64,000 bases of DNA. Origin: Escherichia phage vB_EcoM_DalCa. The stretch is taken from sequence record NC_054908.1. One strand, 5' to 3'. The translations under genes and the position numbers were made by a program. Of this stretch, positions 2,952 through 45,880 are shown in pieces. Each line of letters begins with the position of its first letter. Position 1 is the first letter of the stretch. A model generated the notes under the pieces. It was not told the DNA's origin. It saw only the letters and a program-made list of their open reading frames with translations, and ran no database searches.

Positions 2952-4152
2952 ATTTTGTAATAATGTCAAACTGTTCTTTAAAACAGAAGCTTGAATCTTG
3001 GTGCTGATACAAAAATTCATATGCTTTTTCTCGCTCACGGTCATAAAGAGCTCGGTCAGATGACAGTTCTTTAATACGTTCAAATGTTGATTCCATATCA
3101 TTTTCATCAAACCAAATGATACCGCTATCATGCGAGGTCAAAGGAGTATTATCAACACGGAATTTTAAATTTTCGCCAGTAGATTTCCAAAATACCGGAA
3201 TTGTTCCACACGCGCCAAGCTCGAGATGAGTATATTCTAAAGAACGTTGTAGATATTTTTTATCCAACTTACTCAACTGATAACCAAAACCGGATTTACT
3301 CATACGTTCAAGCATTTCGCTATTTACATAACGGTCAAGAATTTGCGTTGGCAAATTAGGAGCAATTTTAATTTGGTCTACTTGATGAAGACGATAATAC
3401 TCGTATGGAATTCCTTTTTCTTTAATAGGAATGAACGCTGGAGAACGTTCCAGACCTTCCATAATAGTACTTAGTCCTGCAGGTTTAAGATGTTTTTCAT
3501 GAAAATCAAACATCTGATAAAAACCTTTCCATGTAGTCGTACGACCAATCCAACGGTTGATATTCATGTTAATTTCAGAAACATCTTTCCAGTAGGTTGA
3601 TCGAACCTTCGCAATATCCATCGGAGGCTGAAAGTTATATACTGTCGGTGCTTCTTCAATATCATCAAACAGAGAAACTGTTTCTGGATACCATTCTTTC
3701 ATCAGAACTTTATTAAAATCGCCATTATCAGAATGGCTAAAAATAACATCAGCTCGACGAACAGTTTCTTCTAATCCCAAATTTCGACGCAAAGAAAGAG
3801 AAGAATGGTCATGTTGATAAACTACAACACGAACCGAAGGTTTAATGTTATCAATAATTTTTTTATAGTTATTAATAGTGTCTTCTTCAACTGAAGTAAC
3901 AGGAACTGAATTGATAATTAGAATATCACAATCATTTACCAGCTTAAGTGTTTTATCGTATTCTTTTGCCAATAAAACCGGAATTGAAAATGATTTATAA
4001 TCATGTGCACAGTTACGAGTAAATGATTTATCTTTAGCATAAACCAAAGTTACTTCATGACCATTTTTAATAAACCAATCACGTTGCTCAAGAGAAAATT
4101 TAGTTACACCACAACCTTCAAGACCTCGAGCCATAAAAATACATACTTTCAT
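2950..4152 (-). CDS. a-gt: DNA alpha-glucosyltransferase (glucosylates hydroxymethylcytosine)
   Basis: 400 aa, same length and position (downstream of 47) as T4 a-gt; recognised N-terminus MKVCIFMARGLEGCGVTKF. Confidence 0.85.
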   Translation of the reverse strand: MKVCIFMARGLEGCGVTKFSLEQRDWFIKNGHEVTLVYAKDKSFTRNCAHDYKSFSIPVLLAKEYDKTLKLVNDCDILIINSVPVTSVEEDTINNYKKIIDNIKPSVRVVVYQHDHSSLSLRRNLGLEETVRRADVIFSHSDNGDFNKVLMKEWYPETVSLFDDIEEAPTVYNFQPPMDIAKVRSTYWKDVSEINMNINRWIGRTTTWKGFYQMFDFHEKHLKPAGLSTIMEGLERSPAFIPIKEKGIPYEYYRLHQVDQIKIAPNLPTQILDRYVNSEMLERMSKSGFGYQLSKLDKKYLQRSLEYTHLELGACGTIPVFWKSTGENLKFRVDNTPLTSHDSGIIWFDENDMESTFERIKELSSDRALYDREREKAYEFLYQHQDSSFCFKEQFDIITK

Positions 4153-4176
4153 TTAATATCCTCTTTGTTTTGGTTT

Positions 4177-5105: not shown

Positions 5106-5652
5106 ATAAAAAATCCAAACTAGGAGAATCGTCTACAACACTTTTCTTTTCAGCCCCCGGTGTTCTATAGGTTGATTCTTCGTAATGCGTCATTTTATCA
5201 TAGATGTCTTGAATAAAAGTTTCATCTACTAACGCAACCATATCGTCGTCACGGCTGTCATAGACATTGTGAACGAAGTAACTATATTTCTTTGCAACTT
5301 CCTTACGTTCTTTTTTAATACGTTGGACGAATGCATTAAAACAAGCTTGAGTTATATACGCATGTGGGTTTTTATATTTCGTTTCATCAAAATTATGAAG
5401 CCCCTTAATAGAAGCTTCTATACCATCTGCAATCATTTCTTGTTTCCAAGACTGGGTGTATCCTGAAAAGTTGAAACGTTTAGATAAGCCTTCTGCAATA
5501 AGCATAATGGCTAATCCGATAGTATCATTCTGACGAACTACTTTATTTGGGTCTTTATTATTTGCTAATTCTGTTTTCCAATCAATAATAGCTTGTAAAA
5601 GCTCTTTATTGTTTACGTAATTATATTTAGGCTTAGTTTCTGACATTTTCAC
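5089..5652 (-). CDS. 55: Late-transcription sigma factor gp55
   Basis: 187 aa; recognised T4 gp55 N-terminus [25 protein letters not shown]; conserved position. Confidence 0.9.
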
Positions 5653-5724
5653 CTCTTAGCTCAATTCATAGATCTATTATATCATAATATTTGAAGATCT
5701 ATCTTAAAGCATAGAGGATATCAG

Positions 5725-5994
5725 TTATCTAAGTAAACAGTATGCTTGGAACACTTTATCCATCATCTTTTTAAATTCATGAATATCTATATAATGACTA
5801 GTTAGATCAGCATGATATAAAAAGTCTAAAAACTTTTCATGTGTACTAGCATATTCGCTTTCATTTAATTCAGAAACATGGCTTTCCCAATATCCAACAC
5901 CAGTCTTATTTGGGAAAAATGAAATTTTCATGTATTGGTCAACATAGAAAATGCCATAATTTTCAATAGTAATAGAAATATTAATAAATTTCAT
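5725..5994 (-). CDS. Hypothetical protein
   Basis: 89-aa ORF, 55.x region. Confidence 0.45.
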   Translation of the reverse strand: MKFINISITIENYGIFYVDQYMKISFFPNKTGVGYWESHVSELNESEYASTHEKFLDFLYHADLTSHYIDIHEFKKMMDKVFQAYCLLR

Positions 5995-7554: not shown

Positions 7555-7878
7555 TTAGTCTTCTATGATATCTCTATCATATCCAAGTGAAATGAGAGTT
7601 TCTTTGAAGTGTTTAATGTTCTTTTGTCTAGAATCATTAATGAAAATGACAGGATACCGAATATTAAGAGATGTGAATCCGGCGCGTTTGGCAAGAGATA
7701 CAATCAGTGGACGATCATACTCAATCTTACCATTATTAGTAAGAACTTTATAGAAAGTAAAAGGAGCATTGAGCTCCTTTAGAAGTTTTGTAACTGATTG
7801 ACATCCAGGACAACGACCTACTTCATCTGGAATTCCATAGACTTCAATCTTATTCTTTAAGTTCGAGTTTTGTTCCAC
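7555..7878 (-). CDS. nrdH: Glutaredoxin-like protein (NrdH-like), probable GTG start
   Basis: CPGC redox motif in a thioredoxin-fold-sized product; ORF 7555..8007 trimmed to a GTG preceded by AAGGAA, because the ATG-initiated ORF would overlap the upstream gene by about 160 nt. Confidence 0.6.
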   Translation of the reverse strand: MEQNSNLKNKIEVYGIPDEVGRCPGCQSVTKLLKELNAPFTFYKVLTNNGKIEYDRPLIVSLAKRAGFTSLNIRYPVIFINDSRQKNIKHFKETLISLGYDRDIIED

Positions 7879-8161
7879 GAGAAATAATTCCTTGGTAAGC
7901 CCAATAAGGAGGATTAACAGAATCCTCACCAGAGTTTTCTTCAGGAAAATAAACCTGGATAACGAAGCCGGATTCATCAAAGGTAAAATAAACCGTAGGC
8001 AGTTCACCTAACAATTCTGCACGAGCATTAATTTCTTCGAGATCTCGTTCACGTCCAGCCCAAAAACTAGGATTTAGACTACATTCGTAAAAATAATAGT
8101 CATTACCGAACATATCAAACCCCTTCCAACTCTCTACTACATACCGCTCAAAACTAATCAT
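7850..8161 (-). CDS. Hypothetical protein
   Basis: 103-aa ORF between nrdG and nrdH. Confidence 0.5.
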   Translation of the reverse strand: MISFERYVVESWKGFDMFGNDYYFYECSLNPSFWAGRERDLEEINARAELLGELPTVYFTFDESGFVIQVYFPEENSGEDSVNPPYWAYQGIISRGTKLELKE

Positions 8162-8494: not shown

Positions 8495-8965
8495 TTAATC
8501 ATGTTTCCACACCCCATCGGTATTTGACCAAAGTCGCTGATTATCTGATCCTCGCCACAGCTTTTTAGTCGGAAGATTTTTCTCATACTTCCCATCAATA
8601 ATAACATCAACATATTTAAGCATTTCTAGTTGTTTAATATCTTCAAACTTATATCCTGTCCACAACCAAATGCTTTTATTGGGATAAAGATTTTTAATAG
8701 TTTGAACCACAGAGTGAATCACGTCTCTGTTATCAGGATAAAGAGGGTCACCTCCGGTTATAGTTAATCCTTCTATATAATCATTATTCAAACATTCAAT
8801 TAATTGTTCTAGTGTTTCACCAGTGAATGGAATACCATTTCTAGCATTCCATGTTGATTTATTATAACACCCTTCGCATTTATGCAAACAACCTGTAACG
8901 AAAAGAACGGTCCTGCAGCCAGGACCATTAACAAAATCGCAAGGATAAAATCTATCATAATTCAT
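8495..8965 (-). CDS. nrdG: Anaerobic ribonucleotide reductase activating protein (radical SAM)
   Basis: 156 aa; Cys cluster CLHKCEGCYN typical of glycyl-radical-activating enzymes; directly downstream of nrdD. Confidence 0.9.
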   Translation of the reverse strand: MNYDRFYPCDFVNGPGCRTVLFVTGCLHKCEGCYNKSTWNARNGIPFTGETLEQLIECLNNDYIEGLTITGGDPLYPDNRDVIHSVVQTIKNLYPNKSIWLWTGYKFEDIKQLEMLKYVDVIIDGKYEKNLPTKKLWRGSDNQRLWSNTDGVWKHD

Positions 8966-10779
8966 TGGTGTTTAACCCTATGCATGATTTCTTTATTTTT
9001 GCCGAGATTAAATCCGCGTTCGTTCGGATTTCCCAAATAACCACATGTTCTTCTTATTGTGTTCATCTTTTTAGGATCAGTTTCTCCACAAATAGAACAA
9101 ACAAATCCGTTTTCAGTAGGAGTCATTTCATGGGTACTTCCACATGTAAAACATTTATCTACTGGCATATTAACACCAAAATAATCTAAATGTTGTGCAG
9201 CATAATCCCATACGGCCTCAAGACCCTTTAAGTTATTTTTCATATCAGGAAGTTCAACATAAGAAATGTGGCCGCCTGTCGCAATGAAATGATATGGTGC
9301 TTCGCGAGAAATCTTTTCAAACGGAGTAATATTTTCTTCTACTGAAACATGGAAACTGTTAGTGTACCAACCTTTATCGGTAACATCCTTTACACTTCCA
9401 TATTTTTCGGTATCAAGTTTACAGAAGCGATAACAAAGGTTTTCAGCAGGAGTAGAATACAAACTAAAAGCAAACCCAGTTCTTTCAGTCCACTGTTTAA
9501 GACGAGCATTCATTTTAGTTAAAATTTCCTGTCCAATATCACGACCGACAAGAATATTCAATTCGTGAATACCAATGTATCCTAGAGACACTGAACTTCT
9601 GCCATTTTTAAATAACTCAATTATATCGTCATCAGGTTTAAGACGAACCCCGAATGCACCTTCTTGGTAAAGAATAGGAGCAACAGTCGCTTTAACTCCT
9701 TTTAAGGAACTAATTCTACACATCAAAGCTTCAAAACATAAATCCATTCGCTCATTGAACAATTCAGTAAATTTCTGTTCATTGAACTGTGTTCCAATAT
9801 AAGAATCTAATGCGATACGAGGAAGATTCAGTGTTACAACACCGAGATTATTACGTCCATCAAGAATTTCATTGCCAGTCGAATCTTTCCATACGCTCAA
9901 GAAACTACGACAACCCATTGGAGAAACAGGAATAGATGAGCCGGTGATAGCTTTATTGTTCTTAGCCGAAATGATGTCAGGATACATTCTTTTGCTTGCG
10001 CACTCTAAAGCAAGCTGCTTAATATCATAGTTCGGGTCGTCTTTATAAAGATTAACACCTTCTTCAACGAACATAACAAGTTTAGGAAAAATAGGAGTTA
10101 TCCCATCACGACCGAGACCTTTAATACGATTTTTCAGAATTGCTTTCTGAATCATTCGTTCAGTCCAGTCAGTTCCCGTACCAAATGTAATTGTTACAAA
10201 AGGAGTCTGTCCGTTTGAACTAAAGAGAGTATTTACTTCATATTCATAAGCTTGGAATGCATCGTATACGTCTTTTTCTGTTTTAGATTGAGCATAATTC
10301 AACGCATCAGCGATTTGCCATTTTTCTGCATCTTCAATATGTTTTGCATAGGTGCGTTTAACATAAGGAGAAAGTACTTCATCTACATTCGCAAAAGTCG
10401 TTCCGCCATATTGATGGGAAGCAACCTGTGCAGTAATTTGTGCCATAATTGCAGTAGCAACACCGATTGATTTAGGAGTTTCAATCTGCGCATTACCGAG
10501 CTTAAATCCGTTCTCAAGCATTCCTTTTAAATCTACTAAACAGCAATTAGTAAATGGAAGAGCAGGGGAATAATCAATATCATGGAAATGAATAATTCCG
10601 CTTTCATGCGCTTTCATAATAAAAGACGGGACCATATTTTTGGCAATGTGCTTAGACACAATACCAGCCATAAGGTCCCGTTGAGTTGGAAAAACACGAG
10701 AATCTTTATTAGCATTCTCGTTTAAAAGGTCTTTATTAGTTTTATGAATCAATCCTTCAATTTCTTTTTCAATTGTCAT
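8962..10779 (-). CDS. nrdD: Anaerobic ribonucleoside-triphosphate reductase (class III), uninterrupted
   Basis: 605 aa continuous ORF; C-terminal glycyl-radical motif RRTCGYLG and Zn-ribbon CFTCGS...CSICG. Confidence 0.95.
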   Translation of the reverse strand: MTIEKEIEGLIHKTNKDLLNENANKDSRVFPTQRDLMAGIVSKHIAKNMVPSFIMKAHESGIIHFHDIDYSPALPFTNCCLVDLKGMLENGFKLGNAQIETPKSIGVATAIMAQITAQVASHQYGGTTFANVDEVLSPYVKRTYAKHIEDAEKWQIADALNYAQSKTEKDVYDAFQAYEYEVNTLFSSNGQTPFVTITFGTGTDWTERMIQKAILKNRIKGLGRDGITPIFPKLVMFVEEGVNLYKDDPNYDIKQLALECASKRMYPDIISAKNNKAITGSSIPVSPMGCRSFLSVWKDSTGNEILDGRNNLGVVTLNLPRIALDSYIGTQFNEQKFTELFNERMDLCFEALMCRISSLKGVKATVAPILYQEGAFGVRLKPDDDIIELFKNGRSSVSLGYIGIHELNILVGRDIGQEILTKMNARLKQWTERTGFAFSLYSTPAENLCYRFCKLDTEKYGSVKDVTDKGWYTNSFHVSVEENITPFEKISREAPYHFIATGGHISYVELPDMKNNLKGLEAVWDYAAQHLDYFGVNMPVDKCFTCGSTHEMTPTENGFVCSICGETDPKKMNTIRRTCGYLGNPNERGFNLGKNKEIMHRVKHQ

Positions 10780-11249
10780 TTTAAACTCTTTCTAAGCTGC
10801 TTCTTGAATGAAGCTATTAATTGTGTTTTGGTGTCAGATTCATTATATTCAAATCCTCTTTGAAGCATCTCAGCCATCATTTCCTCTTTTCCTAAACGAG
10901 AAAATTCCTTTGATTTATCTCCAACGAAGTTAGGGTGAATATTATTTTGGGTGTAATCGGATTTTAAATAAGTAAGTAAATTTTCTAACCATTCAAGATA
11001 ATCAACCCCTTGTCCCTTTAAGCCAGAACGATTAAATTTATGCTTCATTTGACCTTCTGCGGCATTGCAGAGATTACAAAGCAATCCACGTACCTTTCCT
11101 GCTTTTGGTCCATTTAATTCATGGTCATGGTCGAGGTGATTAGCTTGAACGTCAGGATTTAGTTCTCGTTGGCAAATTAAGCATTTACCATTTTGTGCAT
11201 CATAAAATTTCTGTTTTTCTTCTTTATATAATTTGCCAGTCAATAACAT
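10776..11249 (-). CDS. 49: Endonuclease VII (Holliday-junction resolvase)
   Basis: 157 aa; recognised T4 endo VII sequence including CLICQRELNPDVQANHLDHDHE ... CNLCN. Confidence 0.9.
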   Translation of the reverse strand: MLLTGKLYKEEKQKFYDAQNGKCLICQRELNPDVQANHLDHDHELNGPKAGKVRGLLCNLCNAAEGQMKHKFNRSGLKGQGVDYLEWLENLLTYLKSDYTQNNIHPNFVGDKSKEFSRLGKEEMMAEMLQRGFEYNESDTKTQLIASFKKQLRKSLK

Positions 11250-12231: not shown

Positions 12232-12441
12232 TTAATTTCGCAATTTATTAAGTTCTTCATCATCAATCCAGGATTCTAGTCCTGATGGCAGGTCACATTC
12301 AATTTCCCAAAGAAGTTCTTCAATTTTCTGAAGACGATCTAGTTCTTCGGCTGGAATAGTAACCATTGACGGAGCTCGTGATACATTAATATCGTAAATC
12401 ATATTTACCCCAGTTTGACCATACAATCGCCGTATTTCCAC
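12232..12441 (-). CDS. Hypothetical protein
   Basis: 69-aa ORF. Confidence 0.45.
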   Translation of the reverse strand: MEIRRLYGQTGVNMIYDINVSRAPSMVTIPAEELDRLQKIEELLWEIECDLPSGLESWIDDEELNKLRN

Positions 12442-12881: not shown

Positions 12882-13139
12882 TTATTCCTTAATTCCTAGT
12901 ACTTGTTTAAAAGTCTCGTCGTAATCAAGACTTTGGCCCGTTTGTTCTTTATGTTTGTATATAATATCACTTACTTCTGATAGCATATTTTTATATGAAC
13001 GAGTTAAAGCAGATTTAAGCACGCTGTATCTATCAGGAAATTTACCATGTTCATTATAATAAGCTATTGCTAATTCACGGACTGCCTTTTCAGCAGTCTC
13101 CATATATTCTTTACGCTTGGTCATTTTCTTCTCGGTCAA
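12882..13139 (-). CDS. Hypothetical protein
   Basis: 85-aa ORF, 1 nt from nrdC. Confidence 0.5.
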
Positions 13140-13407: not shown

Positions 13408-14330
13408 TTCAGTACCTCAATAGCATCACGTAAACCATTTGCTTTGGCGGTTAAAGCCTTAAGAACTTTAGTATGCTCTTCAATCTGTTTTTCAACTTCA
13501 ATCAAACGAGCACTGAGATATTCGCGTTCTTCTTTCATAGTATCATTCCCACGATTGGGCTTTGGTGTAGGTTTAAATTCACTAGGGTCCTTTAATTTAA
13601 TAACAAATTTAGTTTCAAACAGTGAAAGACCATAATTCGTATTATCATCAAAGGATTTGACTACATCCATATCAGATAATAACGTACGAAGATTATAAGT
13701 CAAAGAACGAATCGTTTTATTATGTTTATTAGCTTCACACGGTTTCATATATGGAAGATTTTTATATATCTCATTCGGAGCGCAAACGATAATTGACAAT
13801 TCAAATTGTCCATTCTGGGACGATGGAATGAATTTAGCCGTAACCCAGTCTTTTACATTCACATTAATAGTACGGTTATCACCATGACAAAACAGTCTAC
13901 GAGAATGCTTAAAAAGCATATTCACGTTATTATTGAATTCGTGTGAAAATTCACTAGCAAATTTTTCTTTACTATTTTTAGAAAACCATTCTTCTAAATA
14001 AGTTCTTTTCACGTCATTAATAATATTAAATGTAACAACATTAGCATTTGATACATTAGTCTCAATGTAGCTTGGATACATAAATTTTTTAACATTATTA
14101 ACAGCTATCACAGAAGATAGTAATCGGGAACGTTTAAACCATTCAAGCAAATTGCCTAACGAATGAGAATACGCATTTTGTGTATCTTTACAAATATGGT
14201 TTTCCCATCCAATATAGTCTAAAAAATCACGAAGAATATTATTGATTACTGCTCTGTGTCCTATCTGATAATTACGATGTTTAGTAATAAGACTGTCAAA
14301 ATAATCAATATAATGTTTACGAGTTTTCAT
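13404..14330 (-). CDS. Hypothetical protein with C-terminal coiled-coil (paralog family member)
   Basis: 308 aa; C-terminal ~40 aa heptad-like E/K-rich segment after a Pro-containing linker. Confidence 0.55.
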   Translation of the reverse strand: MKTRKHYIDYFDSLITKHRNYQIGHRAVINNILRDFLDYIGWENHICKDTQNAYSHSLGNLLEWFKRSRLLSSVIAVNNVKKFMYPSYIETNVSNANVVTFNIINDVKRTYLEEWFSKNSKEKFASEFSHEFNNNVNMLFKHSRRLFCHGDNRTINVNVKDWVTAKFIPSSQNGQFELSIIVCAPNEIYKNLPYMKPCEANKHNKTIRSLTYNLRTLLSDMDVVKSFDDNTNYGLSLFETKFVIKLKDPSEFKPTPKPNRGNDTMKEEREYLSARLIEVEKQIEEHTKVLKALTAKANGLRDAIEVLK

Positions 14331-20378: not shown

Positions 20379-21392
20379 TCATTTATAATAACTTCGGTGG
20401 TTTTCAAGATAGACCTTCTCAAGGAAGTCATCCCAGAAACTCATGTCTACTGTTTTAGGCATACCGTTCTTAGAAGCTTCAATAGATGCTGCTTCTACTT
20501 GATCGACCACATCTTCCAAAAACTCTTGAACCGTTTTAAATGGATGTTTACCCAACTTCACGTCGAGAATAAATGGAGCATCTTGGAGTGGATAAACCAA
20601 GTCACCAGTTTTGTAAATTTCCAATAGTTGGAGTCCACCACGGCAAGCATGACTCAGAGCTTTCCAGTCAATACCTTCATTGGCTTCGGCCTTACGAGCA
20701 CGTTCACCATATTCAGCATCTAATTTGTTCAGTGACTGCTTAAGCTCAATAAGAGAAAGCGTTGTCTGATATTTACGACCCAACACAGTGTAGAACGTTT
20801 GTGGGCCTGTTTTCTCATGATTATGGAACACCCATTCACAGAATTCGTTTTCTGGAAGACGATGCTTAATATCTTCAACTTTAGTGCGACGCTGCTTAAT
20901 AGAACCATCTTCTTGGTAATCAATCCACTGCTCAGGGATTTGATTAACTACTTTCAATACATCACGTAATGCAGCCAAACGAGAACCCTTGACACCGTAT
21001 TTAGAAGCTTGCTTGCGGACATATCCTAAATAGGATTTCATGTTAGTCGTATAAAAACGAGAACGGTTGTCTTGAATAAACTTCCACACATCAGGCAAAT
21101 CAGATTTAACCACTAGTTCAGGTGGAGTGTGAAGCATATCCAATGCTACAGTTTCACCATCTGCTGCTAATTTAAAGAAATATTTAAGACTGTATAGTTC
21201 ATGGTCAATATCATCTTTAGTGTTTTTAGATGATGTGTTGTTAGTGTTTTTACTCATGTGCTCTTTGACATTTCCGATAAGAATATCACGAGCAGGAGGA
21301 ACAAAAATTTCTTTAAAATCTACATCAGATTCTGGGGTAGAAGTTCCATAAAGATGACTACCAAAATAGCTTTTCATTACTGTTTTCATCAT
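20379..21392 (-). CDS. Predicted nucleotidyltransferase-fold protein (Pol-beta superfamily-like)
   Basis: 337 aa; N-terminal GSHLYGTSTPESDVDF matches the GS...D.D nucleotidyltransferase signature; strong terminator hairpin downstream. Confidence 0.55.
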   Translation of the reverse strand: MMKTVMKSYFGSHLYGTSTPESDVDFKEIFVPPARDILIGNVKEHMSKNTNNTSSKNTKDDIDHELYSLKYFFKLAADGETVALDMLHTPPELVVKSDLPDVWKFIQDNRSRFYTTNMKSYLGYVRKQASKYGVKGSRLAALRDVLKVVNQIPEQWIDYQEDGSIKQRRTKVEDIKHRLPENEFCEWVFHNHEKTGPQTFYTVLGRKYQTTLSLIELKQSLNKLDAEYGERARKAEANEGIDWKALSHACRGGLQLLEIYKTGDLVYPLQDAPFILDVKLGKHPFKTVQEFLEDVVDQVEAASIEASKNGMPKTVDMSFWDDFLEKVYLENHRSYYK

Positions 21393-21856
21393 TCAGCCTT
21401 ATATTCAATAACAGGACATACTTTAGCTTTACGAGCTTTTAAAAATTCAACGATAATCGATTTCTTGGGTTGAATAGGAGGTAAACCTTTATACGCCCTA
21501 TCAATATTTTCTATGTGTAAAGCATAATCCTTTTTCCATTTATAATCTTTATATTTTTCATGCAAATGTGCAGGAATAACAAATGAACCGATAATAAGTA
21601 AAACAACCAAAAGTGCAAGTATAAATGCCGATGGAAGAAGAGTCCATAAACTACCGAAAATAAGCCAACGTTGTAAGCTTTCTGCACAAATAATTGTTAG
21701 CCCTACGAGTATAGCACATCCAAAAATAGAAACGAAAAATGTAGGAATGGCAATAGACCAAAAATATGCGCATAGTGTCTTAGGTCGTTGCCATTCATCG
21801 TTAAACAATTTGAATAATTTATAGTGCCAAGAGTTTTCATTAATAACCATAATCAT
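21389..21856 (-). CDS. Hypothetical polytopic membrane protein
   Basis: 155 aa; three or more hydrophobic helices. Confidence 0.5.
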   Translation of the reverse strand: MIMVINENSWHYKLFKLFNDEWQRPKTLCAYFWSIAIPTFFVSIFGCAILVGLTIICAESLQRWLIFGSLWTLLPSAFILALLVVLLIIGSFVIPAHLHEKYKDYKWKKDYALHIENIDRAYKGLPPIQPKKSIIVEFLKARKAKVCPVIEYKAE

Positions 21857-21858
21857 AA

Positions 21859-22380
21859 TTATCCTTTCATTGAAGGCGTAACGGTTGTTAAATACTTAAT
21901 CATAGCTTCAGCTTCTGATTTTGATAATGAAATTTCTCCATTGTTTTGACGAATAGAAATAAAATCCGGATGACGGTCACCACCAGCTTTTAAAACACAC
22001 ATATAAGTATCAGTTTCACCTTCAATATTTGAAATGATTGAAGCAGTTCCACATGAATGCGGTTTTTGATAAATCAATGCAGCTTTTCTTCCGCCATTTG
22101 ACTGCTCATAGGCTTTTAATACATCAAGCAAATCAGTTCTTTTATCAATAGCTAAAATGTTATTTTCATCTTCAATGTTAAATCCTTCGGATACTTCATA
22201 AAGTGTTACCCATAAATCACCAATGTCAATAACAGCATTTACTTTTCCACGGCTTTCAAGAGTATGACAAATTTTCTTGATTTCGTCATAACTCATTTTA
22301 ATAATATCATCTCCTTGACTAAGGAAGATGTCATTTTTAAATTCAACACGAATTAAACCGCTTCCACTTGAAATAAACAT
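21859..22380 (-). CDS. Hypothetical protein (paralog of 22387..22932)
   Basis: 173 aa; shares FNIEDE and a C-terminal motif with its neighbour. Confidence 0.5.
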   Translation of the reverse strand: MFISSGSGLIRVEFKNDIFLSQGDDIIKMSYDEIKKICHTLESRGKVNAVIDIGDLWVTLYEVSEGFNIEDENNILAIDKRTDLLDVLKAYEQSNGGRKAALIYQKPHSCGTASIISNIEGETDTYMCVLKAGGDRHPDFISIRQNNGEISLSKSEAEAMIKYLTTVTPSMKG

Positions 22381-22386
22381 ATTTCC

Positions 22387-22932
22387 TCACTTTGAAATCA
22401 TAGTTGGAATGACAGAATCAAGATAAGTCTTTAGCGCAATAGCTTCGTCTTTGGTAAATGTGACAATATGTGCTCGAAAATCATCAATTTGACGAATAGT
22501 TAAGACATCTCCATCTTCATAACATTTTGATACGTTTAAAACAGTTTCATCATTCTGATTGCAAGCGTTAGTAATAATAGCATTGCAATTTTTAAACCAT
22601 TTTAAACTATGTTTTCTTTCATTAGAATAATAAAAATATTTAATCTTATCTATAAAACTATCCCAATGGATAACTGATAAGCATATTGACTCGCTTTCAA
22701 TATTAAATCCTGGGCATGAAGAATAAAAATGAATTTTATGCTCATCATTAATGCTTACAATTTTATCAGTATAAGGATTTTCAATTTTGGTTAAATGAAT
22801 GATTTCACTAGGCGTAAAATACAGCATATCGTCTTCTTGTGTCAAACGATACATATTATTTACTTTTTCTATAGCCAATTCACCAAAAAGTGAACTAACT
22901 TCTAATACTAATCGTTTCGCCTCGCTCATCAT
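22387..22932 (-). CDS. Hypothetical protein (paralog of 21859..22380)
   Basis: 181 aa; FNIESE and C-terminal ...LKTYLDSVIPTMISK similar to the neighbour. Confidence 0.5.
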   Translation of the reverse strand: MMSEAKRLVLEVSSLFGELAIEKVNNMYRLTQEDDMLYFTPSEIIHLTKIENPYTDKIVSINDEHKIHFYSSCPGFNIESESICLSVIHWDSFIDKIKYFYYSNERKHSLKWFKNCNAIITNACNQNDETVLNVSKCYEDGDVLTIRQIDDFRAHIVTFTKDEAIALKTYLDSVIPTMISK

Positions 22933-28115: not shown

Positions 28116-28436
28116 TTATTCTTTAAATCTAATCAATTTATTCATAGACTTTGAAACTTCTGCACGAACCTCATGTAGATTTTTGAGCTGTTCAAGACGC
28201 TGCTCATAGTAAGCAATTTCATCTTCTTCGAGACAGTCCTGTGAATCTTCTTTAAGATAACGTGCATAGTCCTGGAAAGCGTTACGAACTACTTCCTGGA
28301 AGTCATCAAGACTTTGAATTTTCTTAGGAGCAACAGATACACGACGAGGGGCAGTATAATACTCATAACCAAACCCTGCGCTTAATTGAGCCATTAGTAT
28401 TTTTCCTCTAGTTGGAACACAGCACGACAAGCCCAC
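28116..28436 (-). CDS. Hypothetical protein
   Basis: 106-aa ORF. Confidence 0.45.
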
Positions 28437-28660
28437 ATACTGGCTTCTTTGAGTTTCATTTTAGCAATAGTTAACTGATCGAGGCTTTCGGCGTAATTCT
28501 TCGCGAGTTCATCATCTTCACAGCTATCAAATGCTTCCCAGAATTCATCATATAAAGCATCAAAGATAAGCCCTAAACGAACTTCAGCATCTTTGATAGC
28601 ATTCACTTTACTGATTTTATCGTCAGTATGTGGTTTATAACCTTTAATGTCTTCAATCAT
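28394..28660 (-). CDS. Hypothetical acidic protein
   Basis: 88-aa ORF. Confidence 0.45.
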
Positions 28661-30670: not shown

Positions 30671-30695
30671 TTTATCCCTCCAAGTAACTGTGAAT

Positions 30696-34731: not shown

Positions 34732-35295
34732 TTATTTACCTAGTTTACTTATTATAGCTTCTGCAGCAGCTTTTAGCTTAGATGCAGTGTTAATACGATT
34801 TTTAATTTCAGTATACGCATCGCCAAGAACATCAAGGCTATCAGAATAAACACTTACACTATTGCGTTCGCTATTTGAAATAGAACCTTTAGTTTTGCGG
34901 TCAAAATCGGTGTACACGTCTTGAAGATCGCGGGCTGCCTTCTTTGCATCATCCAATGCATCAAGAGCTTTATTCAAAGCATTAACGTATTTTTTAGTGT
35001 CGAACATATTCTTAGAAATTTTAACAGGTGCGCGTTCAGGAGTAGCTAACACAGATTTAGGAACCTGAGCGCCAGATGCCAATTTCTTAGAAATTTTGAA
35101 AAATGCTTTATTGAATTTATTTTCTTGACTCATTGTAAAAGAACTATTATCGATGTTGTACATTTCAATAGCTTTAGCTTTCCACTTAAGAAAATCGCCG
35201 CGGTCTTTTGGGTCCAATTGGAAGAATACTTTAGTAAGATCTGCTTCAGATGGTAATTTTGCTGCTTCGGTTAAAAATTCGGCATAGGTTTTCAT
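34732..35295 (-). CDS. Internal-protein-like capsid-targeted protein (IP family candidate)
   Basis: 187 aa; N-terminus MKTYAEFLTEA resembles the T4 internal-protein capsid-targeting sequence (MKTYQEFIAE) ending in an L-x-E prohead-protease-type site. Confidence 0.55.
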   Translation of the reverse strand: MKTYAEFLTEAAKLPSEADLTKVFFQLDPKDRGDFLKWKAKAIEMYNIDNSSFTMSQENKFNKAFFKISKKLASGAQVPKSVLATPERAPVKISKNMFDTKKYVNALNKALDALDDAKKAARDLQDVYTDFDRKTKGSISNSERNSVSVYSDSLDVLGDAYTEIKNRINTASKLKAAAEAIISKLGK

Positions 35296-35384
35296 TTAAA
35301 ATCCTTGAAATAATTTATCGGTTGGTTATTAATTATTTATTACTTTGTTACTATCCGTAACAGCGTTATCCGAGTGATTCAAAC

Positions 35385-35413
35385 TAAAAAGCCCCAACCT
35401 TTCGGTCGGGGCT
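35385..35413 (-). terminator. Intrinsic terminator (repeat copy 1) downstream of IP-like gene 35421..35894
   Basis: On minus strand AGCCCCGACC-GAAA-GGUUGGGGCU followed by UUUUU; identical to copy at 35942-35970. Confidence 0.6.
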
Positions 35414-35420
35414 AAGAATG

Positions 35421-35894
35421 TCATTTGATTTGTTTAGCAGACCAAATGCGGTCTTTAATAATTTTTTGGATGTCTTCAACATACTCAAGAGAGTGAACAT
35501 GTGGATTATCTTTGAAACTATAAGCACGGGCTAACTTTTGGCCTTCGGTTTTGATTACTAAAAGCTCTTTAAGGATAGCTTCATATTTAGCGATAATTCC
35601 TTTAACGATATTTTTTTCTTGTGCCGCTTTAGGATCTGCTTTAGGAGCAGGTTTACCCGAAGCCTTTGCAAAAGCAGCGCCAGTAGCAACTAAACTTTTC
35701 CAGGCCATACTAACTGCATTTCCCGTAAATCCTTCCGCTTTCATGTCGCGTGCAAACTGGAATCGCGATTCATCAGAAGCATCTTTATAGGAATATTTAC
35801 CCGCGGCAATGGCAGCTTTTGCAACAGCTTGAATTTCGGTGCTAGATGCTTCATTTAACACCGCTTCATTTAAAAATTGAGTATATGATTTCAT
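35421..35894 (-). CDS. Internal-protein-like capsid-targeted protein (IP family candidate)
   Basis: ORF 35421..36071 trimmed to ATG (MKSYTQFLNEA) preceded by AGGAAA; CTS-like N-terminus; TATAAATA late-promoter motif upstream; terminator hairpin downstream. Confidence 0.55.
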   Translation of the reverse strand: MKSYTQFLNEAVLNEASSTEIQAVAKAAIAAGKYSYKDASDESRFQFARDMKAEGFTGNAVSMAWKSLVATGAAFAKASGKPAPKADPKAAQEKNIVKGIIAKYEAILKELLVIKTEGQKLARAYSFKDNPHVHSLEYVEDIQKIIKDRIWSAKQIK

Positions 35895-35932
35895 CTTATT
35901 TCCTGTTTTAATTTGTAGATTTAATATACTAA

Positions 35933-35940
35933 TATTTATA
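35933..35940 (-). promoter_or_regulatory. T4-type late promoter motif upstream of internal-protein-like gene 35421..35894
   Basis: Plus strand TATTTATA (TATAAATA on minus) about 40 nt upstream of the MKSYTQF start. Confidence 0.5.
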
Positions 35941-35941
35941 C

Positions 35942-35970
35942 CAAAAAGCCCCAACCTTTCGGTCGGGGCT
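35942..35970 (-). terminator. Intrinsic terminator (repeat copy 2) at 3' end of tRNA/small-RNA transcription unit
   Basis: Same 29-nt hairpin plus U5 as copy 1. Confidence 0.6.
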
Positions 35971-36277
35971 AAGCCTTGCGGCAACCTTGTCGGGGTTCCA
36001 CCTGCTAAGGCAAGTGTTTGTACGAAACGCCGGGATTCGAACCCGGTTATTAAGTAGTTGACGCTACTCAATATTTTTAAAAGGCCATATCTCGACCATA
36101 TCCGAACGTTCCGTCAAAAACGCTACTCGGCTTACGGCAAAGATATTTCCTCGAATCGATAATTCGGTGCGCCGTTTCTGCTGTGATAGTAAAGAGCCAG
36201 AACACAGTAAAACTGTGGGAGGAAACTATACTCCAGGGAACATCAGTCCGACGACTTACCGGTAGCGACCCGGTTTC
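35971..36277 (-). ncRNA. Candidate small stable RNA(s), analogous to T4 RNA C/RNA D (species 1 and 2), including a tRNA-like T-arm
   Basis: About 300 nt with no ORF of 60 aa or more between the tRNA-region ORF and a strong terminator; perfect T-arm-like hairpin CCGGG-TTCGAAT-CCCGG near 36030-36046 without a full cloverleaf; exact RNA ends not determinable by eye. Confidence 0.3.
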
Positions 36278-36628
36278 TTAATATTCTTTTAAAGAATCAA
36301 TATATTCACGGCGTTTACGCCACAAATCAATTGCTTCATACGCGGATTCAGCATTTCGAATTAGCCTGCATTTATGTAAAGACTTATGATTTTGATATTG
36401 TGTAGATAACGGAATTGTATCTAAAAGGTCTTTACGATCAAAATATTCGTAACCATCTAAACCAAATGAACGATTTTTGAGAAATTGCCAATGACCATAT
36501 TCGTTTTCGACATAAACATAATCTGCATGCTGATAAAGCAAATTAATTACACGTTCAGAAATAACAGTATCATTATGATTAAAATAGAATGTTAAATCAT
36601 GAACTACTAAATAAACATTACCTTTCAT
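36278..36628 (-). CDS. Hypothetical protein within tRNA region
   Basis: 116-aa ORF immediately downstream of tRNA-Arg. Confidence 0.5.
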   Translation of the reverse strand: MKGNVYLVVHDLTFYFNHNDTVISERVINLLYQHADYVYVENEYGHWQFLKNRSFGLDGYEYFDRKDLLDTIPLSTQYQNHKSLHKCRLIRNAESAYEAIDLWRKRREYIDSLKEY

Positions 36629-36646: not shown

Positions 36647-36722
36647 TGGTCGAGGCAGTAGGGATCGAACCTACGACCTAGGACTTAGAAGGTCCTTGCT
36701 CTTCCTTCTGAGCTATGCCCCG
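36647..36722 (-). tRNA. tRNA-Arg (anticodon UCU), CCA encoded
   Basis: Manual fold of reverse complement: 7-bp acceptor stem, anticodon arm AGGAC-CUUCUAA-GUCCU, T-arm GTAGG-TTCGATC-CCTAC; 76 nt. Confidence 0.8.
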
Positions 36723-36726
36723 TAAT

Positions 36727-36802
36727 TGGGGTGACCGATGGGAGTCGAACCCATGACTACGAGAATCACAATCTCGAGTTCTACCAACTGAACTACGGCC
36801 AC
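36727..36802 (-). tRNA. tRNA-His (anticodon GUG), CCA encoded
   Basis: Manual fold: D-stem GTTC/GAAC, anticodon arm CGAGA-UUGUGAU-UCUCG, T-arm ATGGG-TTCGACT-CCCAT, discriminator C; not part of the 8-tRNA T4 set. Confidence 0.75.
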
Positions 36803-36916
36803 ATTAATACCTACTCCAACAATCAAGATGTCTTCACACGAAATTAAGAGAAGAGTGATCAGTTCAACCCCTATAATCGCGTCAAGTAGATATTAATGTG
36901 ACAGTTGTCACAAATT

Positions 36917-36991
36917 TGGCGGACGTGATAGGATTCGAACCTATAACCAATCGCTTAACAGGCGATCGCTCTGCCATTGAGCTACACATCC
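36917..36991 (-). tRNA. tRNA-Asn (anticodon GUU), CCA encoded
   Basis: Manual fold: anticodon arm ATCGC-CUGUUAA-GCGAT, T-arm with GGTTCGAATCC; not part of the T4 set. Confidence 0.75.
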
Positions 36992-36995
36992 AAAT

Positions 36996-37082
36996 TGGTG
37001 GGGAGTGGTGGAGTCGAACCACCCGAGTCGCAATGACAATGGATTTACAGTCCACACCGCTACCTCTACGGGATAACTCCCC
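36996..37082 (-). tRNA. tRNA-Tyr (anticodon GUA), class II long variable arm, CCA encoded
   Basis: Manual fold: acceptor GGGGAGT/ACTCCCC, anticodon loop CUGUAAA, long variable arm, T-arm GGTGG-TTCGACT-CCACC; 87 nt; not part of the T4 set. Confidence 0.7.
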
Positions 37083-37091
37083 AAATTAATT

Positions 37092-37166
37092 TGGTGGCCC
37101 TGGGTGGAATTGAACCACCATCTGGCGATTATGAGTCGCTTGCTTGAACCTTCCAGCTACAGGGCC
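37092..37166 (-). tRNA. tRNA with anticodon CAU (Met or lysidine-modified Ile), CCA encoded
   Basis: Manual fold: acceptor GGCCCTG/CAGGGCC, anticodon loop CUCAUAA, T-arm GGTGG-TTCAATT-CCACC; cannot separate Met from Ile(LAU) by eye. Confidence 0.65.
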
Positions 37167-37167
37167 T

Positions 37168-37243
37168 TGGTGCTGATTGACGGAATCGAACCGCCGACCT
37201 TCTCATTACAAGTGAGTTGCTCTACCTACTGAGCTAAATCAGC
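37168..37243 (-). tRNA. tRNA-Thr (anticodon UGU), CCA encoded
   Basis: Manual fold: acceptor GCTGATT/AATCAGC, anticodon loop CUUGUAA, T-loop TTCGATT. Confidence 0.75.
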
Positions 37244-37248
37244 AAAAC

Positions 37249-37338
37249 TGGCGGAGGCGATAGGATTTGAACCTATGAGTCGCCGGAGCGACTGCCGGTT
37301 TTCAAGACCGGTGCATTAAACCACTCTGCCACGCCTCC
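37249..37338 (-). tRNA. tRNA-Ser (anticodon UGA), class II, CCA encoded
   Basis: Manual fold: acceptor GGAGGCG/CGCCTCC, anticodon arm CCGGT-CUUGAAA-ACCGG, long variable arm; 90 nt. Confidence 0.8.
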
Positions 37339-37340
37339 AG

Positions 37341-37414
37341 TCTCCGTGGCAGGATTTGAACCTACGACATTCTACTCCCAAAGCAGACGCTCTACCAAAC
37401 TGAGCTACACGGAG
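37341..37414 (-). tRNA. tRNA-Pro (anticodon UGG), CCA not encoded
   Basis: Manual fold: acceptor CTCCGTG/CACGGAG, anticodon loop UUUGGGA, T-loop TTCAAAT; 3' end abuts tRNA-Ser 5' end, consistent with the T4-type Pro-Ser dimeric precursor. Confidence 0.75.
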
Positions 37415-37424
37415 TAAATTAAAT

Positions 37425-37498
<74 letters not shown>

Positions 37499-37503
37499 AA
37501 ATT

Positions 37504-37590
37504 TGGTGCGAGAAGTGGGACTCGAACCCACAAGGAAATCATTCCGCAGCATTTTAAGTGCTGTGCCTTTACCAATTTGGCCATTCTCGC
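37504..37590 (-). tRNA. tRNA-Leu (anticodon UAA), class II, CCA encoded
   Basis: Manual fold: acceptor GCGAGAA/TTCTCGC, anticodon arm CAGCA-CUUAAAA-UGCUG, long variable arm; 87 nt. Confidence 0.8.
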
Positions 37591-37591
37591 G

Positions 37592-37664
37592 CTGGGAATA
37601 AAGGACTCGAACCTTTGCATCCTGGAATCAAAATCCAGTGCCTTACCAACTTGGCTAATTCCCA
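37592..37664 (-). tRNA. tRNA-Gln (anticodon UUG), CCA not encoded
   Basis: Manual fold: acceptor TGGGAAT/ATTCCCA (U1-A72), anticodon arm CTGGA-UUUUGAU-TCCAG, T-arm AAAGG-TTCGAGT-CCTTT; 3' end abuts tRNA-Leu as in the T4 Gln-Leu dimeric precursor. Confidence 0.75.
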
Positions 37665-37761: not shown

Positions 37762-38049
37762 TTACCATTTATAATAATACATATTTACGATGCATTCAAG
37801 ACCCAAAGGATTCTTGAAAATATCATATTCAAGAGGACCTTTTTCTGTTTCAATAAAGAAATCAAAATTTACTGTATTAAATTTACGTTCTTCCTTCACT
37901 AATTTAACTTGAGAAGATGAACGGTCAATGTAAACCTTTTCAACTTCAAAACATGTTAAAATGCCATAATCATCAATCAAAGCTTTAGCCGCGTCTTGAT
38001 CATATTTATATCCATTTTCAATGGATGATACTTTCGCATAAAGAATCAT
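37762..38049 (-). CDS. Hypothetical protein
   Basis: 95-aa ORF upstream of the tRNA cluster. Confidence 0.5.
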   Translation of the reverse strand: MILYAKVSSIENGYKYDQDAAKALIDDYGILTCFEVEKVYIDRSSSQVKLVKEERKFNTVNFDFFIETEKGPLEYDIFKNPLGLECIVNMYYYKW

Positions 38050-38051
38050 TA

Positions 38052-38450
38052 TCAGCCTTCATCAACAATAGTGTGAGTATTAGCATTTACGATTTGCCAC
38101 CAATCAAAGCGATTAGAATCCATCGGTTTGTTTTCATTTTCTTTGATAATGTCACGGAGTTCATCTTCAGAGAATGCTTTAGCAATTAAATCGGTATACC
38201 CACCACGGGGATAATAATTATCACCTGCAAACAAAAGGAAATTTACCTTCCCGGAAGCAACATATGCTTCCTTAGGATACTTGTTTCCTGCGTGGTCAAC
38301 CACTTCAATATAACGGTAAGGAATATCGGTTCTTTCAACCCATTGCCATGCCGCCGCAGGGGAATCGAAAGCATCTACACCTAAACGATTATCTTCATCT
38401 TTAGACGGATTATTTTCGTAATCCGCATATACATAATATTCAACGTTCAT
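38052..38450 (-). CDS. Hypothetical acidic protein
   Basis: 132-aa ORF. Confidence 0.5.
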   Translation of the reverse strand: MNVEYYVYADYENNPSKDEDNRLGVDAFDSPAAAWQWVERTDIPYRYIEVVDHAGNKYPKEAYVASGKVNFLLFAGDNYYPRGGYTDLIAKAFSEDELRDIIKENENKPMDSNRFDWWQIVNANTHTIVDEG

Positions 38451-38635
38451 TATTCACCTTTAGAAATTTTATCCATAACAATAGCAATTAAACCAATTAA
38501 AAATGCTACTACAAGTGAAAAAACATTTTCTGCCGTAGTCAATAATCCGCATATAAATCCAACAAACATTGAAAAACTGAAAGCGGAAGCAGAAATTGCA
38601 ATAGCAACATTTCGAATTAATTCACAACGTTTCAT
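38450..38635 (-). CDS. Hypothetical small membrane protein
   Basis: 61 aa, two hydrophobic helices; early-type promoter upstream. Confidence 0.45.
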   Translation of the reverse strand: MKRCELIRNVAIAISASAFSFSMFVGFICGLLTTAENVFSLVVAFLIGLIAIVMDKISKGE

Positions 38636-38663
38636 TTTATTCTCCTCAGTAGTAGATAGGGTA

Positions 38664-38692
38664 ATAGTATCACTACCCTATCTAAAAGTAAA
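38664..38692 (-). promoter_or_regulatory. T4 early-type promoter module upstream of 38450..38635
   Basis: GATAGGGTAATAGTATCAC...AGTAAAC on plus; 17-bp spacing. Confidence 0.5.
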
Positions 38693-38693
38693 C

Positions 38694-38939
38694 TTATTTT
38701 TTACGAAAAATTGATTTATTTTCTGCTGCCCATTTTTCAATAACTGCAGCAGGACCAGTAACAACAATTTTATCACCGTAATCTTCTGCGGCGAGTTGAC
38801 CGAAATTATCTAATGCATCACGAAGAACTCCATGAGGCATTTCACCCATTTTATCTTTCTTGCCAGTGTAAATAAACTCAACTTTTACATCAGCAGTTTC
38901 AGCAATAAATTCTTGGTAAGTTTTCATTTTGATTTCCAT
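38694..38939 (-). CDS. Internal-protein-like capsid-targeted protein (IP family candidate)
   Basis: 81-aa ORF; from its fifth codon reads MKTYQEFIAETA, matching the T4 IP capsid-targeting sequence; true start may be that internal ATG. Confidence 0.55.
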   Translation of the reverse strand: MEIKMKTYQEFIAETADVKVEFIYTGKKDKMGEMPHGVLRDALDNFGQLAAEDYGDKIVVTGPAAVIEKWAAENKSIFRKK

Positions 38940-38961
38940 TTGGTTTTGTTTTGATAGGGTA

Positions 38962-38990
38962 ATAGTATCACAACTAAAACCCTATGTAAA
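38962..38990 (-). promoter_or_regulatory. T4 early-type promoter module upstream of IP-like gene 38694..38939
   Basis: TTGATAGGGTAATAGTATCAC...TGTAAACAACTTTGTGAAATTATTTTA on plus. Confidence 0.55.
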
Positions 38991-39003
38991 CAACTTTGTG
39001 AAA

Positions 39004-39261
39004 TTATTTTAAATCTTCTAATCGTTTCTTCATCTTAGAACCATTTTTAGCAATTTCTCCTGCATCGGAGCATAATGCTAAAAGTGCTTTAACTTTAGTT
39101 TGGTCTCCTTTAAAAGATGAAGGATCGACCGCAGCAGCAAGTTCTTTAATACGAGAGAAAAGACGCTCAGCTTCAGCTAAAGCCATTCCAAGCTTTACTT
39201 CCATACCGTGGGAAGATTCAGTGATAGTAGTTTTTGTAGCAAACTCTTTGAAAGTTTTCAT
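39004..39261 (-). CDS. Internal-protein-like capsid-targeted protein (IP family candidate)
   Basis: 85 aa; N-terminus MKTFKEFATKTTITE resembles CTS with L/I-x-E site. Confidence 0.5.
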   Translation of the reverse strand: MKTFKEFATKTTITESSHGMEVKLGMALAEAERLFSRIKELAAAVDPSSFKGDQTKVKALLALCSDAGEIAKNGSKMKKRLEDLK

Positions 39262-39334: not shown

Positions 39335-40019
<685 letters not shown>

Positions 40020-42755: not shown

Positions 42756-43346
42756 ATGCTCTTTACATTTTTTGATCCGATTGAATATGCGGCCAAAACG
42801 GTGAATAAAAACGCGCCGACTATTCCTATGACAGATATTTTTAGAAACTATAAAGACTATTTTAAACGCGCTCTTGCGGGATACCGCTTACGTACTTATT
42901 ATATCAAAGGTTCACCACGCCCGGAAGAATTAGCAAATACTATATATGGAAATCCACAGTTGTATTGGGTTTTATTGATGTGTAATGATAATTATGACCC
43001 GTATTATGGATGGATTACTTCACAAGAAGCAGCTTATCAAGCATCTATACAAAAATACAAAAATGTAGGTGGAGACCAAATAGTATATCATGTGAATGAG
43101 AACGGCGAAAAATTTTATAATTTAATATCATACGATGATAATCCATATGTTTGGTATGACAAAGGCGATAAAGCTAGAAAATATCCTCAATATGAAGGAG
43201 CACTTGCTGCTGTTAATACGTATGAAGATGCTGTTCTTGAAAATGAAAAACTTCGTCAAATAAAAATAATAGCAAAATCAGACATCAATTCATTTATGAA
43301 CGACCTTATACGTATAATGGAGAAATCTTATGGAAATGATAAGTAA
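42756..43346 (+). CDS. 53: Baseplate wedge protein gp53
   Basis: 196 aa; first plus-strand late gene, TATAAATA motif about 28 nt upstream; T4 synteny. Confidence 0.85.
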   Translation: MLFTFFDPIEYAAKTVNKNAPTIPMTDIFRNYKDYFKRALAGYRLRTYYIKGSPRPEELANTIYGNPQLYWVLLMCNDNYDPYYGWITSQEAAYQASIQKYKNVGGDQIVYHVNENGEKFYNLISYDDNPYVWYDKGDKARKYPQYEGALAAVNTYEDAVLENEKLRQIKIIAKSDINSFMNDLIRIMEKSYGNDK

Positions 43347-45057: not shown

Positions 45058-45067
45058 TATACTTCCA

Positions 45068-45586
45068 ATGAGCACTGATTTAGGAGAATCCATGGAAGGT
45101 TCTTCTATCGACGTCACCTTTACCGCTCAATTAGAAACAGGTGAAACGTTAGTATCTATAAATATAACTAGTTACGAAGAAACTCCTGGGGTTTTAGTAG
45201 AAGAAAATCGCTTATATGGAACATATGAATCTGTGTTTGGATTTGGAAATGACGCGTTGAAATATCGTTTAGGCGATGAATTTAAAACTGCTGCTTCATG
45301 GGAAGAACTTCCTACTGATTCTGATACTCAGTTGTATTTGTGGAAAGCTCCTCAAAATCTCCAGAAGACATTCACTTACGAAGTAACATTAATATATGAC
45401 TACCAAGAACAAAGTGAATCTGGAGGTTCTGGCAGTAATTCTAGGTCATCTTCTGATACTACTGAACCGACTGATCCTCCTGCTCCAGTAAGAAAAACTC
45501 TAGTTAAAAATTACACAAAAACTATAGTTGGAAATTGGAGTCGTTGGGCTAATAAATTAAGAAGCTATGTATATGAGAGGTCATAA
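45068..45586 (+). CDS. Hypothetical protein gp5.1-like
   Basis: ORF 45029..45586 trimmed to first ATG downstream of gp5 stop; acidic, Ser-rich; position as T4 5.1. Confidence 0.5.
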
Positions 45587-45880
45587 ATGTCAGGATTGAG
45601 TTATGATAAGTGTGTTACTGCTGGCCATGAAGCGTGGCCTCCAACAGTTGTGAATGCTACGCAAAGTAAAGTATTCACTGGAGGAATTGCTGTTCTCGTA
45701 GCAGGCGATCCAATTACAGAACATACAGAAATTAAAAAGCCATATGAAACACATGGCGGAGTGACACAACCTAGAACTTCTAAGGTATATGTCACTGGAA
45801 AGAAAGCTGTTCAAATGGCTGATCCAATATCATGCGGTGATACTGTGGCTCAGGCATCATCTAAAGTATTCATTAAATAG
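45587..45880 (+). CDS. 5.4: PAAR-repeat spike-tip protein gp5.4
   Basis: 97 aa; size and position match T4 gp5.4; Gly/Cys-containing PAAR-like segments. Confidence 0.8.

Follow-up and report, generated by a model that had tools for sequence, protein, structure and literature searches.

In bacteriophage T4, the gene nrdD is interrupted by a group I intron that encodes an endonuclease, and the region around it carries additional, free-standing endonuclease genes. An initial annotation of the corresponding DNA from Escherichia phage vB_EcoM_DalCa described an intron-less nrdD and a region with no recognisable homing endonuclease genes. Two questions follow from this description: whether the mobile elements of T4 are truly missing from this DNA, and whether their absence is a peculiarity of vB_EcoM_DalCa or of T4. 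The DNA analysed here, called the window, is a stretch of 64 kb, and all the searches cover these 64 kb of the approximately 167-kb genome; endonuclease genes may be present elsewhere in the genome, outside the window.

The window is colinear with the genome of T4 (NC_000866) from approximately 33.7 to 99.2 kb, which corresponds to the span from gene 46 through gene 17. At approximately 42.7 kb, the genes of the window change from the minus strand to the plus strand. Between these T4 coordinates, T4 contains six mobile elements: mobB, mobC, the intron of nrdD together with the endonuclease it encodes, mobD, segB, and segC. The initial annotation mentioned mobD and seg genes for this region of T4, in agreement with the T4 annotation, which lists all five of the free-standing genes. 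Synteny and base-level comparison showed that all six elements are cleanly missing or replaced in the window.

Over the 6 kb around nrdD, the window shares 97-98% identity with numerous Tequatrovirus genomes, among them those of phages MLF4 (97.6% identity over the 6 kb), EO1, CrRp10, RB51, and RB68. Yersinia phage fPS-65 matches positions 13001-38000 of the window as a single colinear piece with 97.4% identity over 25 kb. Therefore, the exact arrangement of the window is already present in sequenced phages. The Tequatroviruses RB51, MLF4, and fPS-65 share with the window a nucleotide identity of 97-98%, the gene order, the intron-less nrdD, and the lack of mobB, mobC, and mobD, in place of which they contain the same replacement segments as the window. 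In all probability, vB_EcoM_DalCa belongs to this type of Tequatrovirus, with the sites of the T4 elements unoccupied, a nrdD of the ancestral, intron-less type, and an empty homing site for the intron endonuclease I-TevII.

The nrdD gene and the intron insertion site

The gene nrdD, encoding the large subunit of the anaerobic (class III) ribonucleoside-triphosphate reductase, was identified at positions 8962-10779 of the minus strand from the list of open reading frames, alignment to T4, and Pfam. It is one uninterrupted, ATG-started open reading frame of 605 codons (1818 nt), which is exactly the length of the spliced nrdD of T4. Global alignment of the two genes gave a nucleotide identity of 95.7%, and six of the 605 amino acids differ. 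The protein contains one continuous NRDD domain (PF13597, residues 21-604, profile positions 1-562 of 562, E=1.2e-171) and the C-terminal glycyl-radical domain (Gly_radical, PF01228, residues 481-586, E=1.3e-25). None of the six differences from T4 is located in the C-terminal region. The alignment of NrdD with the crystal structure of the T4 protein (chain 1H78_A) extends from end to end, residues 1-605, so NrdD contains no intein or other insertion. Judging from its 99% amino-acid identity to the characterised T4 enzyme, NrdD of the window probably reduces nucleoside triphosphates under anaerobic conditions.

The stop codon of nrdD overlaps the start codon of nrdG in an ATGA junction. nrdG (8495-8965, minus strand) encodes the radical-SAM activase of NrdD and was recognised by matches to the Pfam families Fer4_12 (4e-47) and Radical_SAM. 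Translation of the nrdD transcript would yield the complete class III reductase without splicing, and the gene for its activase is adjacent. For annotation purposes, nrdD can be called here as one coding sequence without a join.

In the alignment of T4 nrdD to the window gene, blocks of 538 and 1280 nt, both free of gaps, flank the 1033-nt intron of T4 (T4 44815-45847), and the boundary between the blocks cannot slide by even one base. The unoccupied insertion site is located between positions 10241 and 10242 of the window (minus strand), that is, between nucleotides 538 and 539 of the gene, after the first base of codon 180, where the junction of exon 1 and exon 2 is continuous. A search with the Rfam model Intron_gpI (RF00028) at the gathering threshold identified no group I intron on either strand of the 64 kb; the Rfam matches at gathering thresholds were confined to 11 tRNAs. 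A permissive Rfam scan for weak intron signals (E<=5) returned solely tRNA-related and chance matches. The nrdD intron of T4, used as a positive control, scored 105.3 bits (E=1.7e-27). The description of nrdD as a single intron-less frame of 605 codons was thus borne out. The same annotation named I-TevIII as the endonuclease encoded by the T4 nrdD intron, which is incorrect. According to the T4 annotation and Table 1 of Edgell, Gibb and Belfort 2010 (PMC2988022), the nrdD intron encodes the GIY-YIG endonuclease I-TevII, whereas I-TevIII belongs to the intron of nrdB. In the T4 annotation, I-TevIII is a defective HNH open reading frame in the nrdB intron, approximately 90 kb away and outside the region analysed here.

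The nrdD locus of T4, where the gene is also called sunY, shares with the window the coding length of nrdD, the position of gene 49 upstream, and that of nrdG downstream. Unlike the window, T4 contains the group IA intron with the I-TevII open reading frame after nucleotide 538 of the gene, has mobC between nrdD and nrdG, and differs at seven positions close to the exon junction. Relative to the joined exons of T4, these differences are at -2, +8, +11, +14, +15, +17, and +20, and all seven are synonymous.

Phage T2 (AP018813, 40833-42650) resembles the window in that its nrdD is an uninterrupted gene of 1818 nt, the stop codon of which overlaps the start codon of nrdG, and in that it lacks mobC. 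Within the homing-site region of the window (10209-10281, minus strand), from -40 to +33 around the insertion site, the sequence of T2 is identical to that of the window, including all seven positions at which T4 is variant. The two nrdD genes differ by 63 nt across the gene, and elsewhere the region is mosaic. Product names in the T2 record are unreliable, as nrdG is listed as 'tail sheath monomer' and gene 49 as 'hypothetical protein'; the record (AP018813, 36000-52000) was used for its coordinates and sequence alone.

Sites of the free-standing T4 endonuclease genes

The sites at which T4 carries free-standing endonuclease genes could be located in the window by synteny. The empty mobB site (4144-4167, minus strand) is 24 bp long and corresponds to 861 bp in T4 (37818-38678), located between a-gt and a-gt.2.

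At the empty mobC site (8945-8965, minus strand), the BLAST pieces overlap and skip T4 42917-43517. The mobC gene of T4 lies between two copies of a 21-nt sequence in direct repeat, ATGAATTATGAYAGAATYTAT (locus positions 12896-12916 and 13518-13538), whereas the window contains one copy, which forms the first seven codons of nrdG. The repeat in T4 encodes MNYDRIY, the start of both mobC and nrdG. This arrangement suggests that mobC was inserted by recombination within the 21-nt microhomology, or that the N-terminus of mobC is a hybrid with nrdG.

The mobD site (21393-22362, minus strand) is occupied by two open reading frames that do not encode endonucleases (Pfam T4_y05I_N/C, PHROG 944 and 1502). 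One encodes a membrane protein (21389-21856, PHROG 944) and the other is a second y05I-like gene (21859-22380). No nuclease domain was found in either of them using Pfam and PHROG. The y05I-like gene, which encodes a putative transcription factor, adjoins the mobD.1 homologue (22387-22932), so that the two form a tandem pair.

The place of segB is taken by extra tRNA genes and one open reading frame. The tRNA cluster of the window (36647-37664, minus strand), identified with ARAGORN and Rfam, consists of 11 genes without segB. RB51, compared at positions 5262-5870 of its locus, differs from the window in that it has a segB-like GIY-YIG gene, RB51ORF142, where the window has tRNA-Pro; the genes for tRNA-Ser, Pro, and Gly are contiguous in the window. 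A tblastn search with RB51ORF142 found no match in the window (E ~0.1). RB51 is approximately 97% identical to the window in the nrdD region, and therefore endonuclease content varies among very close relatives. The cluster of T4 comprises eight tRNA genes, and those additional in the window are for His, Asn, and Tyr. The tRNA of the window with the anticodon CAT corresponds to tRNA-Ile of T4.

At the empty segC/5.3 site (45583-45588, plus strand), the synteny skips T4 80218-80774, so that gene 5.1 abuts gene 5.4, the PAAR gene, and the PAAR domain is encoded within 45587-45880. No decayed remnants of endonuclease genes were found at the 24-bp mobB site, the single 21-nt copy at the mobC site, or the junction of genes 5.1 and 5.4 by synteny and sequence comparison; the six-frame profile search described below would detect pieces as small as the 37-residue mobA fragment of T4.

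Endonuclease searches and variable loci

The absence of endonuclease genes from their T4 positions leaves the question of whether such genes are present elsewhere in the window. Pfam (E<=0.01) identified no homing-endonuclease domain in 115 open reading frames of the coding strand of at least 45 residues, a set that excludes four large genes already matched to T4. The large structural genes of the plus strand are colinear with their T4 orthologues, to which they are 90-97% identical, and contain no insertions. NrdD and the nine longest antisense open reading frames were likewise free of homing-endonuclease domains at E<=0.01. The only nuclease-family matches in the Pfam scans were Endonuclease_7 with its dimerisation domain in gp49, RegB, and DenV.

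Searches of the window by tblastn with all 15 homing endonucleases of T4 gave a best match of E=0.023, whereas in T4 each set of queries also recovers its paralogues, at 1e-5 to 1e-33. None of the nine GIY-YIG proteins of T4 nor the SegB-like protein of RB51 was found in the window by tblastn. GIY-YIG and HNH profiles were built from the T4 homing endonuclease genes and compared with open reading frames of at least 25 residues in all six frames, with all filters off. The best GIY-YIG match in the window had an E of 0.6, compared with 1e-24 to 1e-44 in the T4 control, and the best matches to the HNH (Mob) profile were at approximately 0.4-0.6, compared with 6e-17 to 1e-109 in T4. The control recovered every seg and mob gene of T4, including the 37-residue mobA remnant at 6e-17.

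Gene 49 (10776-11249, minus strand) encodes endonuclease VII, a Holliday-junction resolvase (Endonuclease_7 2.2e-20, Endonuc-dimeris 2.5e-32), and is 97% identical in nucleotide sequence to gene 49 of T4. gp49 is the sole protein of the HNH superfamily in the window and is not a homing endonuclease. The agreement of Pfam, tblastn, and six-frame profiles upholds the initial annotation in its claim that endonuclease VII is the exception among GIY-YIG or HNH reading frames. That annotation had proposed intron and homing-endonuclease searches and a comparison with T4, and these, as carried out here, found no group I intron and no GIY-YIG or HNH homing endonuclease in the window.

A highly divergent homing endonuclease could be hidden among window-specific open reading frames that are annotated without a function. 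The frames of this kind are at 7850-8161, 34732-35295, 35421-36071, and 36278-36628, and they have no Pfam assignment. The top candidate by position is the last of them, encoding 116 residues, which adjoins tRNA-Arg in the tRNA cluster, a hot spot for endonuclease genes that holds segB in T4 and the segB-like gene in RB51. However, open reading frames in the segments without a T4 counterpart contained no nuclease domain at the permissive Pfam threshold of E<=1 or in PHROGs; they correspond to domains of unknown function (DUFs), a membrane protein, a y05I-like protein, and PHROG families without known function. In the window-specific frames themselves, neither motifs nor domains of nucleases were detected at E<=1, and the PHROG matches were confined to families without known function. 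The 116-residue protein has homologues in seven clusters, all of them hypothetical phage proteins, conserved in T4-like phages. Together with the similarity to an RB69 open reading frame noted in the RB51 record, this conservation is more suggestive of a resident gene than of a sporadic mobile element. An AlphaFold model of the protein was of mediocre confidence (pLDDT 65), and at this confidence the best Foldseek match in the PDB had an E of 0.47. A length of 116 residues is also short for a nuclease combined with a DNA-binding domain. The products of 34732-35295 and 35421-36071 start like capsid-targeted internal proteins. We therefore consider a concealed endonuclease extremely unlikely, and the window is best described as containing no homing endonuclease genes.

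The genes ipII and ipIII of T4 are absent from the window and ipI is replaced (30674-30681, 34732-36071, and 38694-39261). Four open reading frames, at 34732-35295, 35421-36071, 38694-38939, and 39004-39261, encode capsid-targeting-like sequences of the type MK(T/S)(Y/F)xEF at or near the N-terminus, and the RB51 counterpart of one of them is annotated as Ip5. These loci look like the known hyper-variable loci of internal proteins. Anti-defence genes were found in 28394-28660 and 39335-39793, encoding an Acb2/Tad1-hairpin protein at the position of T4 vs.4 and Acb1 (T4 57B). In place of T4 49.3, the window contains an acidic open reading frame of 69 residues (12232-12441), which matches a PHROG labelled antitoxin and, weakly, the T7 gp5.9 family of RecBCD inhibitors (E=5e-4, below the Pfam cut-off).

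Distribution, history and homing at the nrdD site

The T4 nrdD intron is present at full length in 25 of 50,697 phage records, and approximately half of the carriers are T4 itself or laboratory variants of T4. The remaining carriers are RB55, RB59, PST, fPS-2, G8, RPN226, Manna, EC128, and U5. Of the 902 records that matched the 6-kb nrdD region of the window, 495 did so over 80% or more of its length. Full-length matches to the free-standing genes of T4 numbered 26 for mobB, 32 for mobC, 38 for segC, 47 for mobD, and 126 for segB, and each of these genes is a minority feature. T4 has been called "the outlier" in a review (PMC2988022). The intron-less state without homing endonuclease genes is usual in relatives of T4, because T4 itself is the exception; that the window lacks both the intron and such genes is ordinary and already known. 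The initial annotation had presented these absences as distinguishing the phage from T4. They do so in the sense that T4 has elements that are lacking here, but the framing is misleading, since the difference tells about T4 and not about this phage. vB_EcoM_DalCa follows the pattern common among T4 relatives, in which the nrdD intron is lacking and homing endonucleases are few or absent.

The exon sequence next to the insertion site follows the presence of the intron. At a threshold of 95% identity over +1 to +60, 26 records contain the T4-type exon-2 flank, namely the intron carriers and Salmonella phage SG1. A flank at least 95% identical to that of the window was found in 519 of 548 matching records. 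Therefore, the window carries the majority allele of the empty site, and the distinctive flank of T4 accompanies the intron. Such linkage is consistent with co-conversion, during homing, of the exon sequence on either side, a process described in the review that also reports the demonstrated mobility of the nrdD intron (PMC2988022).

The lineage of vB_EcoM_DalCa might once have held the intron and lost it precisely, either by recombination with an intron-less phage or through reverse-transcribed spliced mRNA. Such a loss would be compatible with the nrdD junction, which is exact to the base, and T-even phages acquire and lose introns and homing endonuclease genes sporadically. A history of loss and one in which the intron was never gained would result in the same allele. 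However, the exon flank of the window is the majority intron-less allele, identical to that of T2, and conversion by spliced mRNA would be expected to leave a T4-type flank. Secondary loss is disfavoured by the lack of all seven flank variants that accompany the intron in T4, and we regard it as very improbable. The preferred reading is that of an ancestral-type nrdD with an empty homing site.

T2 is said to have been the recipient in the original homing crosses, those of Quirk et al. in 1989. The identity of the window to T2 from -40 to +33 suggests that the site in the window is an unoccupied and probably cleavable I-TevII homing site, and that this phage would be susceptible to homing. In a mixed infection with an intron carrier such as T4, I-TevII would cut the empty nrdD site. 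Repair of the resulting double-strand break, with the donor as template, would then introduce both the intron and the flanking exon sequence of T4.

The seven synonymous differences from T4, spread from -2 to +20, overlap the cut site of I-TevII, which reportedly is 13-15 nt 3' of the insertion site (Bell-Pedersen et al., 1990). The gene-wide divergence is 4.3%, and the clustering of the seven differences was tested in 20000 permutations that kept codon-position classes. Seven differences in this specific 23-nt interval occurred in 0 of 20000 permutations, and in any interval of that size in 0.46%. A second, equally dense cluster of differences is located at gene positions ~1007-1034, and for this reason we make no claim of selection on the junction site; the cluster at the junction is suggestive, not unique. 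We speculate that polymorphism of the flank might modulate cleavage by I-TevII, conferring partial resistance on the intron-less allele or self-immunity on the intron allele, and consider this improbable. If true, a cleavage-modulating flank would help to explain the rarity of the intron despite its efficient homing in the laboratory. vB_EcoM_DalCa provides one more data point on the known puzzle that the mobile elements of T4 are efficient in laboratory crosses and rare in nature.

Salmonella phage SG1 (MF001354 / NC_054936) has a T4-like exon-2 flank of 96.7% identity at approximately 156290-156349 and is absent among the records matching the nrdD intron. The flank of SG1 may reflect the loss of an intron or co-conversion of the flank without the intron.
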